A stretch of 64,000 bases of DNA, from assembly GCA_037138275.1 (NCBI GenBank), contig JBAXIR010000001.1:9916-73915 (forward strand), in the 5' to 3' direction. The translations under genes and the position numbers were made by a program. The notes beneath the pieces are model-generated. The model ran no database searches. It was not told the DNA's origin and saw only the letters and a list, made by a program, of their open reading frames with translations. Each line of letters starts with the position of its first letter. Position 1 is the stretch's first letter. Of this stretch, positions 23,852-24,883 are shown piece after piece. Origin of the DNA: Mycobacteriaceae bacterium (GTDB lineage Bacteria; Actinomycetota; Actinomycetes; Mycobacteriales; Mycobacteriaceae).

Positions 23852-23911
23852 GTCGCCGACTGTGCGGTTTTGCGCGGGACACGCTGTGTCTGTGCAGAAA
23901 TCCGCACAGTC
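23852..23911 (+). repeat. 60-bp imperfect palindrome (REP-like), left copy
   Basis: Perfect 11-bp stem CGACTGTGCGG (23857-23867) / CCGCACAGTCG (23902-23912), with imperfect pairing continuing inward. Confidence 0.88.
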
Positions 23912-23949
23912 GACTGGGCAGCGTCGGTGCCCGATGGCAGCCTCCGCCT

Positions 23950-24766
23950 ATGGAGGATGGCTGGCCCTTCCGGGGTGCAGAGGCGGTCGAAGCGGGCCGG
24001 GTGTCGGCCGGTCAGCTCCGGAAGTTCTACACCGCGATTTACCCCGGCGTATACGCGCCGCGGGGTGTGGAGCTATCGCCGATTCAGCGGGCCCGCGCCG
24101 GCTGGCTCTGGTCACGCCAGCAGGGCGTAGTCGCGGGCCTGTCGGCGTCAGCCATGCTGGGCTCGAAATGGGTCGAGCCGACATTGCCCGCCGAGCTCGT
24201 GCACGTCAATCGACGCACTCCCGCGATGCTGACCGTCCACAGCTACACGCTTCTGCCCTGCGAGGCAATTGAACTCGACGGCATGATGGTGACGACCGCT
24301 GCTCGCACCGCGTTCGACATAGGTCGGCGTCTACCGCTGACCAAGTCCGTACAACGACTTGATGCGTTGATGCGCGCGACGAAACTGAAAGTCGCCGATG
24401 TCGAAGAAGTCATCGCCGGTCACCCCGGGGTCCGCGGACTCTCGTCGCTGCGGAGGACCCTTGACTTCGTAGACGGTGGAGCGGAGTCCCCGTATGAGTC
24501 GCTAACCAGACTGACCTTGATCCGAGCGGGTCTGCCAGCGCCAGAGACGCAGCTTCGCGTCGATGACGAGTCAGGTTTCCCGGTGGCATACCTCGATATG
24601 GGGTGGCGGGAGCGCCGCCTGGGCGTGGAGTTCGACGGCGCTCAGCACTGGACCGATGCACAACCTGGAATCACTGGGCTGGCGGATCATTCGGGTCAGC
24701 AGTGACATGCTTCGCACGCCGGCGGTGATCATCGCCCGCGTCCGCGCAGCCCTCGAATCAGGGTGA
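23950..24766 (+). pseudogene. DUF559/Vsr-like nuclease-family gene (Rv3517/Rv1482c/Rv3555c-like), frameshifted near 24660
   Basis: Frame 1 encodes VTTAARTAFD, AESPYES, LDMGW and VEFDGAQHWTD. The conserved end LESLGWRIIRV...IARVRAAL continues in another frame (ORF 24563-24766). Confidence 0.85.
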
Positions 24767-24824
24767 GTGTGCGGATTTCTTAGGGCCGACGGCGTGTCAC
24801 GCATGAAACCGCACAGTCGCCGAG
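24765..24824 (-). repeat. 60-bp imperfect palindrome (REP-like), right copy, inverted
   Basis: Its reverse complement aligns without gaps to 23852-23911 at 44/60 identity (hand count). Confidence 0.85.
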
Positions 24825-24843: not shown

Positions 24844-24883
24844 CGAAAAAGCCCGACTCGCGAAAGCGAGCCGGGCTTTTTCG
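24844..24883. terminator. Bidirectional intrinsic terminator downstream of groEL2
   Basis: CGAAAAAGCCCG-ACTCGC-GAAA-GCGAG-CCGGGCTTTTTCG hairpin with A and T tracts on either side. Confidence 0.9.

Follow-up and report, generated by a model that had tools for sequence, protein, structure and literature searches.

We analyzed a window of 64,000 nucleotides from a Mycobacteriaceae bacterium (GCA_037138275.1, contig JBAXIR010000001.1, window position being contig position minus 9915), in which a unit of about 970 bp lies between an amidohydrolase gene and the groEL2 terminator. The unit consists of a single broken gene bracketed by two palindromes of about 62 bp, which are inverted copies of each other (Table 1).

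Table 1 Features of the hairpin-bracketed unit and its immediate neighbors (window positions).
Position	Strand	Feature
23822		Stop of the amidohydrolase gene
23854..23915	+	5' terminal hairpin (R1 family, '+' orientation; arms CGACTGTGCGGTTT / AAATCCGCACAGTCG; loop box GACACGC on the outer side)
23914..23949	+	Short leader with a degenerate CTGTGGA(T/C)(A/G) box remnant (CTGGGCAGC, 23914-23922) and TGGCAGCCT (23935-23943), the latter matching the clade's conserved TG(C/G)CAnnnT element just upstream of the start
23950..24766	+	Pseudogene of an AbiEi-wHTH + Vsr/DUF559-type endonuclease; ORF 23950-24705 (251 aa) truncated by a frameshifting 32-bp deletion at about 24664/24665; original C-terminal reading frame resumes after the deletion (frame 24563-24766) and ends at TGA 24764-24766
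24761..24822	-	3' terminal hairpin (R1 family, '-' orientation, i.e. the same arms with the loop flipped), starting inside the last codons and the stop codon of the gene
24844-24883		groEL2 terminator

We first examined whether the two hairpins are related beyond chance. The best ungapped comparison of the left copy (from 23852) with the reverse complement of the right copy (ending at 24824) gave 44/60 identical positions, exactly as the earlier note had reported, whereas 200,000 random 60-mers of the window gave 16.1 ± 3.5. A repeat search revealed inter-hairpin arms at 23853-23887/24789-24823 (35 nt, 83%) and 23896-23911/24765-24780 (16 nt, 94%), in addition to the intra-hairpin arms. As single strands, the left and right copies fold at -21.0 kcal/mol (z -3.8) and -15.9 kcal/mol (z -2.6), and a covariance model built for the family (R1) scored them at 73.7 bits (E 4.6e-15) and, on the minus strand, 73.3 bits (E 6.3e-15), respectively. 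The stop codon overlapped by the right copy lies inside TGAGTGTGCGG. No other copy lies in the window, but the same assembly carries two more clear copies (C7:30985-31047 and C8:16515-16577). A search of Rfam with the region gave only sub-threshold noise, and a loose pattern search for the hairpin returned 578 meaningless hits; copies were therefore sought with nhmmer and the covariance model.

The earlier note described the gene as DUF559/Vsr-like, which is right at the fold level, but did not state that the gene is broken. Alignment with two other sampled genomes (G006 and G021; the assembly containing the window is G000) showed that the 32-bp deletion removes the invariant D244/R247 region. 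The two ORF fragments in the window gave no Pfam hit, and an intact ortholog scored below the curated cut-offs of PF18741 (REase_MTES_1575; 33.9 bits against 38.2) and PF04480 (DUF559; 17.4 bits against 20.6), although precomputed annotation lists PF18741 for many homologs. AbiEi models of the PADLOC library matched at E 1e-9 to 3e-12. The AF2 model (pLDDT 91.1, pTM 0.86) matched Rv2827c (1zel, probability 0.99, aligning over the whole chain), the catalytic domain of the homing endonuclease I-Bth0305I (3r3p, TM 0.78, rmsd 3.0 A), Vsr (1cw0) and a DUF559 protein (3hrl) in a Foldseek search. The core residues E184, D217, H234 and D244 are invariant, dN/dS is 0.13-0.25, and 25 of 26 sampled copies are intact, indicating purifying selection on the intact orthologs. 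The intact protein is an AbiEi-type winged-helix DNA-binding domain fused to a Vsr/DUF559-type (PD-(D/E)xK superfamily) endonuclease domain.

We then compared orthologous loci. Among 80 R1-clade cassettes from named Mycolicibacterium, Mycobacterium and Mycolicibacter genomes, 71 carry both hairpins; the 5' copy is present in 74 (68 of them '+') and the 3' copy in 76 (73 of them '-'), mostly starting 4 nt before the end of the stop codon, which is TGA in 72 of 80. The loop box ACACGC is invariant (consensus GACACGCCG). In an alignment of 66 orthologous upstream regions, the CTGTGGA(T/C)(A/G) box lies at -48 to -60 in 57 of 69 loci and the TGsCAnnnT element about 7-15 nt before the start; we infer that the latter is a possible extended -10 promoter of a leaderless mRNA. 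Within the R1 family the stem shows little compensatory change, and the data do not say whether DNA or RNA structure is selected.

Genome-wide, the R1 hairpin occurs in 78 of 101 genomes at 1-35 hits per genome, both at family genes and as intergenic solo copies, 24 of 26 of which lie within about 25 nt of a stop codon. The earlier note had proposed looking for solo doublets; the solos are single hairpins, each of which is itself a REPIN-like palindrome. All 18 genomes with an R1-clade gene have R1 hairpins (4-35 hits), and none of the 23 genomes without R1 hairpins has such a gene; however, several nearly complete genomes (G002, G066) have strong R1 hairpins but no R1-clade gene, so that hairpins persist, or spread, without the cognate gene. 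In five genomes, every gene at least 63% identical to the query has R1 hairpins at its ends, while paralogs at 40-50% identity have none and instead carry their own matching 5'/3' hairpins. Since an automatic hairpin finder was distracted by canonical terminators, we compared own with other flanks by alignment: the own-flank score has a median of 20.5 against 9.5 for non-cognate pairs, and the own pair ranks first in 19 of 36 loci. Each hairpin type has its own solos, and G000 itself has three family genes and three hairpin families. The protein family is present as 1-14 paralogs in 100 of 101 sampled genomes of the genus, annotated only as 'hypothetical' or 'DUF559'. Outside the genus, only 3 of 12 loci show matching flanks.

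We also investigated whether the unit and its solos vary in position. The cassette occupies at least 17 flank contexts, with two copies in some genomes, whereas most paralogs are syntenic across species and mostly single-copy per clade, so movement, if any, is slow. The glmU/tRNA-Gln site is empty in G021, filled by a solo in G000 and G002, and decayed in G017. One site downstream of a conserved gene is empty in G002, G011 and G015, holds a solo R1-like hairpin in G001, and holds the full cassette in G024; the match rests on the left flank, as the right flank of the G024 cassette could not be matched, and gain of the gene at a solo and loss of the gene leaving a solo fit equally well. The G001 and G024 hairpins share the same unusual arm variant, GAACGTGCG. 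At the groEL2 site, gene-less sites were found in sister genomes, and 42 of 43 cassettes have the opposite orientation to G000, with G006 sharing the orientation of G000; the copy in this window is therefore inverted. No target-site duplication was visible at the ends of the unit or at the compared sites, and no cleavage signature was seen. Taken together, the computational predictions of the earlier note held, namely that the hairpin occurs at family genes and as solos, that sister genomes show empty sites, and that repeat variants co-vary with protein clades.

The 970-bp unit is a decayed and inverted copy of a conserved mycobacterial single-gene cassette, consisting of the palindrome, a short promoter region, the gene, and the same palindrome with its loop flipped. 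The interpretation we favor, which we hold to be about as likely as not, is a selfish nuclease-palindrome partnership organized like REP-RAYT: the N-terminal domain may recognize the cognate palindrome, and the nuclease may nick or cut in or next to it, although there is no biochemical evidence that the protein binds or cuts the hairpins. Vsr-type enzymes are known as hydrolytic nickases, and no strand-transfer activity is known for them. Because the enzyme is hydrolytic, spread would occur through host repair of the break (homing-like gene conversion or SDSA) rather than through transposase chemistry, which is our inference. Since an inverted copy of a palindrome has the same arms and only a flipped loop, a cut at the loop/arm junction of a solo copy, repaired from the cassette, would reproduce hairpin-gene-hairpin exactly, and recombination between the repeated arms would delete the gene again and leave a solo. 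In this window the partnership is dead: the gene lost catalytic-core residues with its 32 bp, and the unit was flipped in the G000/G006 lineage, most simply by recombination between its two terminal inverted hairpins.

A RAYT-like division of labor, in which an essentially immobile, vertically inherited and domesticated gene actively copies or transposes the solos as non-autonomous elements to new gene ends, and in which the flanking hairpins mark the enzyme's own recognition sites, is possible but doubtful. There are one (rarely two) gene copies per clade per genome against 5-50 solos, the paralogs are syntenic across species, the protein is under purifying selection, a solo inserts as a discrete 60-75-bp unit at the glmU/tRNA-Gln site, genomes with the gene have more hairpins (median about 10 hits against about 3), and the organization matches published REPIN-RAYT features (PMC3116915, PMC3733652). 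However, the enzyme lacks the HUH/Y1 chemistry that lets RAYT/IS200-type enzymes cut and rejoin single-stranded hairpin DNA, a hydrolytic nuclease alone cannot transpose DNA, the cassette itself occupies many contexts, and hairpins persist in G002 and G066 without the gene. We consider it less likely still that the protein autoregulates by binding an inverted repeat upstream of its own promoter, like AbiEi antitoxins, with the 3' copy and the solos acting as RNA 3'-end elements (stability or RNase III processing, as proposed for TRIT) and with operator-repressor co-evolution and gene conversion between nearby copies producing the matching flanks. This reading is consistent with the AbiEi-like N-terminal domain, the resemblance of the whole chain to Rv2827c (which probably binds inverted repeats in its promoter), the position of the 5' hairpin 55-130 bp upstream of the start next to a conserved promoter-like region, and the TRIT-like location of solos at gene 3' ends (PMC3152330, PMC13714241). 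It does not explain why the 3' end of the gene carries the same family-specific palindrome, why dozens of solos of the same family sit at unrelated gene ends rather than at promoters, why a conserved nuclease domain with invariant catalytic residues is attached, or why solos and cassettes show insertion polymorphism.

A defense or toxin-antitoxin-like role, as an AbiE-type abortive-infection or restriction-like nuclease whose gene happens to sit in repeat-rich intergenic DNA, appears improbable: the AbiEi matches, a weak NCBIfam match to an anti-phage ProA nuclease region (E 0.15) and the frequency of PD-(D/E)xK nucleases in defense systems speak for it, whereas there is no AbiEii partner or any second gene, the unit is monocistronic with neighbors that differ between contexts, no PHROG match was found, and such a role does not predict that each paralog has its own cognate palindromes. 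A phage origin was likewise rejected. Mycobacterial intergenic regions are rich in hairpins and a canonical terminator lies 20 bp away, but a chance pairing of two generic terminator-like hairpins around an ordinary gene is refuted by the 44/60 match, the fixed positions and orientations of the hairpins in 71 of 80 orthologs, and the family-wide pairing of flanks.

Like REPIN-RAYT systems (Bertels & Rainey 2011, PMC3116915; Di Nocera et al. 2013, PMC3733652), the unit has a single-copy gene flanked by inverted copies of a short palindromic repeat (direct copies in some other clades) that is also dispersed in extragenic space, mostly downstream of genes and between convergent genes, with several repeat families per genome each tied to its own gene clade, a hairpin-forming replicative unit of about 60-110 nt, and a gene that is mostly vertically inherited and under purifying selection. 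It is not a member of that family: Pfam, NCBIfam and PADLOC gave AbiEi plus REase_MTES_1575/DUF559 only and no HUH/Y1 (IS200/IS605-like) transposase, the R1 consensus CGCCGACTGTGCGGTTTC...GAAATCCGCACACTCG has no GTAG or CGTC tag, copy numbers are 2-50 per family per genome rather than hundreds, the 3' repeat overlaps the gene's own stop codon, and the host is an actinobacterium. IS200/IS605-family insertion sequences also have subterminal hairpins at both ends of a small element and a relation to REP-type derivatives, but here there is no TnpA (HUH) or TnpB, and the ends are inverted, or in some clades direct, copies of a full palindrome; with no transposase domain and no visible target-site duplication, the unit was also rejected as a classical insertion sequence. 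With Vsr-like (EDxHD) homing endonucleases and Vsr itself it shares the catalytic fold in the predicted structure, and with the former a modular layout of a DNA-binding region followed by a Vsr-like nuclease and a selfish-looking, free-standing gene, its presence/absence polymorphism leaving membership among homing endonuclease genes open; it differs in that the gene is not inside an intron or intein, is bracketed by dispersed palindromes and has an AbiEi-type DNA-binding module. Compared with AbiEi antitoxins, the C-terminal part is a nuclease with conserved catalytic residues, and the inverted repeats are complete 62-bp palindromes present at both gene ends and elsewhere in the genome.

The hairpins also behave, without established sequence identity, like TRIT ('Tuberculosis Rho-independent terminator', Gardner et al. 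2011, PMC3152330), which is probably the same as stem-loop family Myt-1 (Cozzuto et al. 2008, PMC2267715): the hairpins and TRIT are both sequence-conserved palindromic repeats restricted to Mycobacterium, with dozens to about 150 copies, whose position is tightly tied to gene ends and starts a few nucleotides before the stop codon. TRIT is not an efficient terminator and is now proposed to be an RNase III substrate (PMC13714241; 10.1101/2022.06.01.494293). Such palindromes have been known for over a decade with no mechanism proposed for their origin or spread, no gene has been linked to TRIT in the papers we read, and literature searches on DUF559 in mycobacteria, DUF559 with AbiEi, and RAYT/REPIN in Mycobacterium found nothing relevant. 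M. tuberculosis has at least 4 members of the protein family; a second protein search with another paralog (C93) surfaced no M. tuberculosis entry. It is possible, though tentative, that mycobacteria, including the M. tuberculosis complex, harbor a previously unrecognized class of mobile DNA in which a hydrolytic Vsr-type nuclease with an AbiEi-type recognition domain generates and maintains families of palindromic 3'-end repeats of the TRIT/Myt-1 type through nuclease-induced break repair, as a functional analogue of REP-RAYT that evolved independently from a different enzyme superfamily. If the protein does bind and cut its own palindrome, this would also explain local genome plasticity, as seen in the inversion of the unit in this window and in a solo copy that sits at a deletion junction elsewhere in this genome.

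We analyzed the two imperfect palindromes of about 62 bp that bracket a single gene in the window (Table of feature coordinates), and repeat analysis revealed both the arms within each hairpin and the long inverted match between the two hairpins. As single strands they fold at -21.0 kcal/mol (z -3.8) and -15.9 kcal/mol (z -2.6) for the left and right copies, respectively. The similarity reported in the earlier note, 44 of 60 identical positions without gaps between the left copy and the reverse complement of the right copy, was exact; whereas, random 60-mers of the window give 16.1 +/- 3.5. The observation is thus real and far beyond chance. Because each copy is itself a palindrome, an inverted copy here means the same arms with the asymmetric loop flipped, and this loop carries an invariant ACACGC box (consensus GACACGCCG). 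The unit lies between the stop of an amidohydrolase gene and the canonical terminator of groEL2, a nearly perfect 18-bp stem flanked by A and T runs (CGAAAAAGCCCGACTCGC / GCGAGCCGGGCTTTTTCG) that is distinct from the bracketing hairpins and conserved in relatives. The host assembly (G000) is a 2.86-Mb, 94.7%-complete, 66% G+C mycobacterial genome. In the same spacer between the amidohydrolase and groEL2, the relatives G002, G017, G018 and G013 (loci L003, L004, L011 and L012) carry a small conserved ORF (about 135 aa, starting MSVPVDLEQLAEALSDFTFAYLITVGDD...) that G000 lacks, and in G002 its stop codon is again TGA, inside a TGAGTGTGGG hairpin arm.

The bracketed gene is broken. Its ORF (251 aa) stops early, and the original C-terminus is read in another frame up to a TGA that lies inside the first arm of the right hairpin; alignment with two orthologs revealed a 32-bp deletion that removes a conserved segment and shifts the frame. 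The sister genome, G006, carries a different lesion (an in-frame TAA), so the gene died independently in two reduced genomes.

Table of feature coordinates. Positions in the window, in the host assembly G000 outside the window, and in other loci and genomes.
Feature	Sequence	Position
Stop of the amidohydrolase gene	window	23822
Region holding the hairpin-bracketed gene	window	23852-24824
Left (5') hairpin	window	23854-23915
Degenerate CTGTGGA(T/C)(A/G) box	window	23914-23922
Truncated ORF	window	23950-24705
32-bp deletion	window	about 24664/24665
Original TGA stop codon	window	24764-24766
Right (3') hairpin	window	24761-24822
groEL2 terminator	window	24844-24883
Solo R1 hairpin next to glmU	G000, contig C7	30985-31047
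Solo R1 hairpin between convergent genes	G000, contig C8	16515-16577
Two solo hairpins, C93 type and C221 type	G000, contig C42	10828-10894 and 11732-11800
Conserved CTGTGGA(T/C)(A/G) box	loci L078-L157	48-60 nt upstream of the gene start
Tandem array of three 3' hairpins	locus L146	2368-2644
Tandem array of three 5' hairpins	genome G024, contig C1	160935-161202
Protein family members (at least four)	G265 (M. tuberculosis complex)	about 1.197, 2.522, 3.953 (with one in-frame TGA) and 3.995 Mb

We then investigated the encoded protein in detail. Pfam searches with the fragments of the window gave no hit, whereas the intact ortholog of Mycolicibacterium litorale (genome G021, 290 aa) matched REase_MTES_1575 (E 3.4e-8) and DUF559 (E 0.004) in its last ~80 residues, both with scores below the curated cut-offs. 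Databases call its relatives 'hypothetical', 'DUF559 domain-containing', 'endonuclease domain-containing' or 'very-short-patch-repair endonuclease', with AbiEi_1 (PF09407) plus PF18741 as the precomputed domains. An AlphaFold2 model was confident (pLDDT 91.1, pTM 0.86), and its best structural neighbours were M. tuberculosis Rv2827c (1zel, an AbiEi-type protein, over 250 columns), the catalytic domain of the Vsr-like homing endonuclease I-Bth0305I (3r3p, TM 0.78, rmsd 3.0 A), Vsr itself (1cw0), and a DUF559 protein (3hrl). PADLOC AbiEi models matched residues ~32-146 at E down to 3e-12, and no phage family matched. A 24-sequence family alignment revealed invariant residues in the nuclease core (E184, D217, H234 and D244, in the pattern AESPxE...TQ...DMGW...vEYDG.qH...D..R); the copy in the window lacks the D244 region. 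Orthologs of the same clade, referred to as the R1 clade after its hairpin family, evolve at dN/dS 0.13-0.25, and 25 of 26 sampled copies are intact.

In G000 the R1 hairpin has four clear copies, the two that bracket the gene and two solos on contigs C7 and C8. A covariance model built from eight copies detected R1 in 78 of 101 sampled genomes of the genus, at 1-35 hits each. We cross-matched all hairpin hits and all protein hits in five genomes, and every gene at least 63% identical to the query has R1 hairpins at its ends, whereas paralogs at 40-50% identity have none. Among 80 loci of R1-clade genes from named Mycolicibacterium, Mycobacterium and Mycolicibacter genomes, 74 have a 5' hairpin 55-130 bp upstream of the start (68 of these in '+' orientation), 76 have a 3' hairpin (73 of these in '-' orientation, most starting 4 nt before the end of the stop codon), 71 have both, and the stop codon is TGA in 72. 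This is, therefore, a ~1.1-kb unit with ~62-bp terminal inverted hairpins. A conserved CTGTGGA(T/C)(A/G) box is present upstream of the gene in 57 of 69 R1-clade loci, and in other clades as GTTATCCACAG, sometimes inside the loop of the 5' hairpin; read on the other strand it is (T/C)(A/G)TCCACAG, which resembles a DnaA box (TTATCCACA / TTGTCCACA), and it could be a regulator site or a link to replication.

We next examined 36 loci of the wider protein family, in which almost every paralog is bracketed by a hairpin of its own sequence, with the 3' copy, or only a half-arm of it, abutting the stop codon. The upstream flank of a gene matches its own downstream flank far better than it matches those of other members (median score of 20.5 against 9.5), and the own pair ranks first in 19 of 36 loci, with most exceptions losing only to orthologs or same-clade loci. 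Both inverted and direct arrangements occur, even within the R1 clade. Six hairpin types taken from one genome each have their own solos, often 7-10 or more, and one solo is 97% identical to its cognate copy. In G000 the rule is complete: there are three family genes (the pseudogene studied here, C93 and C221) and three multi-copy hairpin families, each matching one gene. On contig C42 of G000, two solos of the C93 and C221 types lie about 840 bp apart, roughly the size of a family gene; a tblastn search found no family gene between them, so this may be a fully decayed cassette. Tandem arrays of three hairpins with a period of about 104-110 bp lie next to family genes in locus L146 and in genome G024. 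The outer ends of the different hairpin families share CGCCGAG...CTCGGCG. The protein family is in 100 of 101 genomes at 1-14 copies; outside the genus, however, only 3 of 12 loci show matching flanks.

The solos are intergenic and hug gene ends, with a high-GC3 ORF stopping within about 25 nt in 24 of 26 cases, often on both sides. The C7 solo of G000 is wedged between the glmU start region and the 3' end of a tRNA gene that we read as tRNA-Gln; at this site G021 has only a few bases between the two features, G000 and G002 have the full hairpin, and G017 has a decayed remnant, so a solo arrives as a discrete unit. The C8 solo of G000 sits where relatives have 3-5 kb of extra DNA: the two convergent genes on either side are 3.2 kb apart in G006 and 4.7 kb apart in G017, and on different contigs in G002, so in G000 the hairpin sits at the junction of a lineage-specific deletion. 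The R1 cassette occupies at least 17 different flank contexts, and some genomes have two copies. Downstream of one conserved gene we observed three states: no hairpin in G002, G011 and G015, a solo R1-like hairpin in G001, and the full cassette in G024, whose 5' hairpin shares the unusual arm variant GAACGTGCG with the G001 solo. At the groEL2 site, 42 of 43 cassettes face groEL2 with their 5' end, and only G000 (and G006) has the reverse, so the unit in this window was inverted in that lineage, most simply by recombination between its terminal inverted hairpins. All 18 genomes with an R1-clade gene have R1 hairpins (4-35 hits), and none of the 23 genomes without hairpins has the gene; however, G002 and G066 have strong hairpins without the gene.

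The clade-specific pairing of gene and palindrome, the solos at gene ends, the insertion polymorphism, the inversion, and a conserved nuclease with a DNA-binding domain of a type that probably binds inverted repeats suggest that the protein recognises its cognate palindrome and cuts in or next to it. Vsr-type enzymes hydrolyse DNA and are not known to rejoin it; we therefore favour spread through repair of the break, although we consider this reading only about as likely as not. A cut at the loop/arm junction of a solo (a-L | a'), repaired by synthesis-dependent strand annealing from a cassette (a-L-a'-gene-a-L*-a'), would regenerate a complete hairpin on both sides of the gene, and recombination between the repeated arms would later delete the gene and leave a solo. 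This would explain why cassettes sit exactly where solos sit, and why both ends carry full palindromes. The main rival, a RAYT-like division of labour with an immobile gene and mobilised hairpins, appears unlikely, and a purely regulatory reading, combining AbiEi-type autoregulation with RNA 3'-end elements, is more doubtful still.

In organisation this matches REPIN-RAYT systems point by point (PMC3116915, PMC3733652); it fails their defining feature, however, because the enzyme is not an HUH/Y1 transposase, and it also has no GTAG or CGTC tag, with copy numbers in the tens. The catalytic domain is closest to Vsr-like homing endonucleases, and the N-terminal part is closest to AbiEi antitoxins, but there is no AbiEii partner. 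The proposal of the earlier note, that the protein may recognise or process its own flanking hairpins and spread them as a REP-type system built on a PD-(D/E)xK nuclease, passed every computational test it proposed. The copy in this window is a dead, inverted relic, whereas the class it belongs to is widespread, conserved, unnamed in the literature we could search, and experimentally tractable; it has a REP-RAYT-like organisation with a different enzyme.

The hairpins behave like TRIT/Myt-1 of M. tuberculosis. TRIT is restricted to Mycobacterium and palindromic, has 147 copies that start about 8 nt before stop codons, is not an efficient terminator, and may be an RNase III substrate (PMC3152330, PMC2267715, 10.1101/2022.06.01.494293, PMC13714241). 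No paper that we could find links TRIT, or any mycobacterial palindrome, to a gene. An M. tuberculosis-complex genome (G265), identified by 40 copies of its CRISPR repeat, does contain at least four members of the protein family, at coordinates that fit Rv3517 and Rv3555c, both of which the earlier note had named as members of this multi-copy family.
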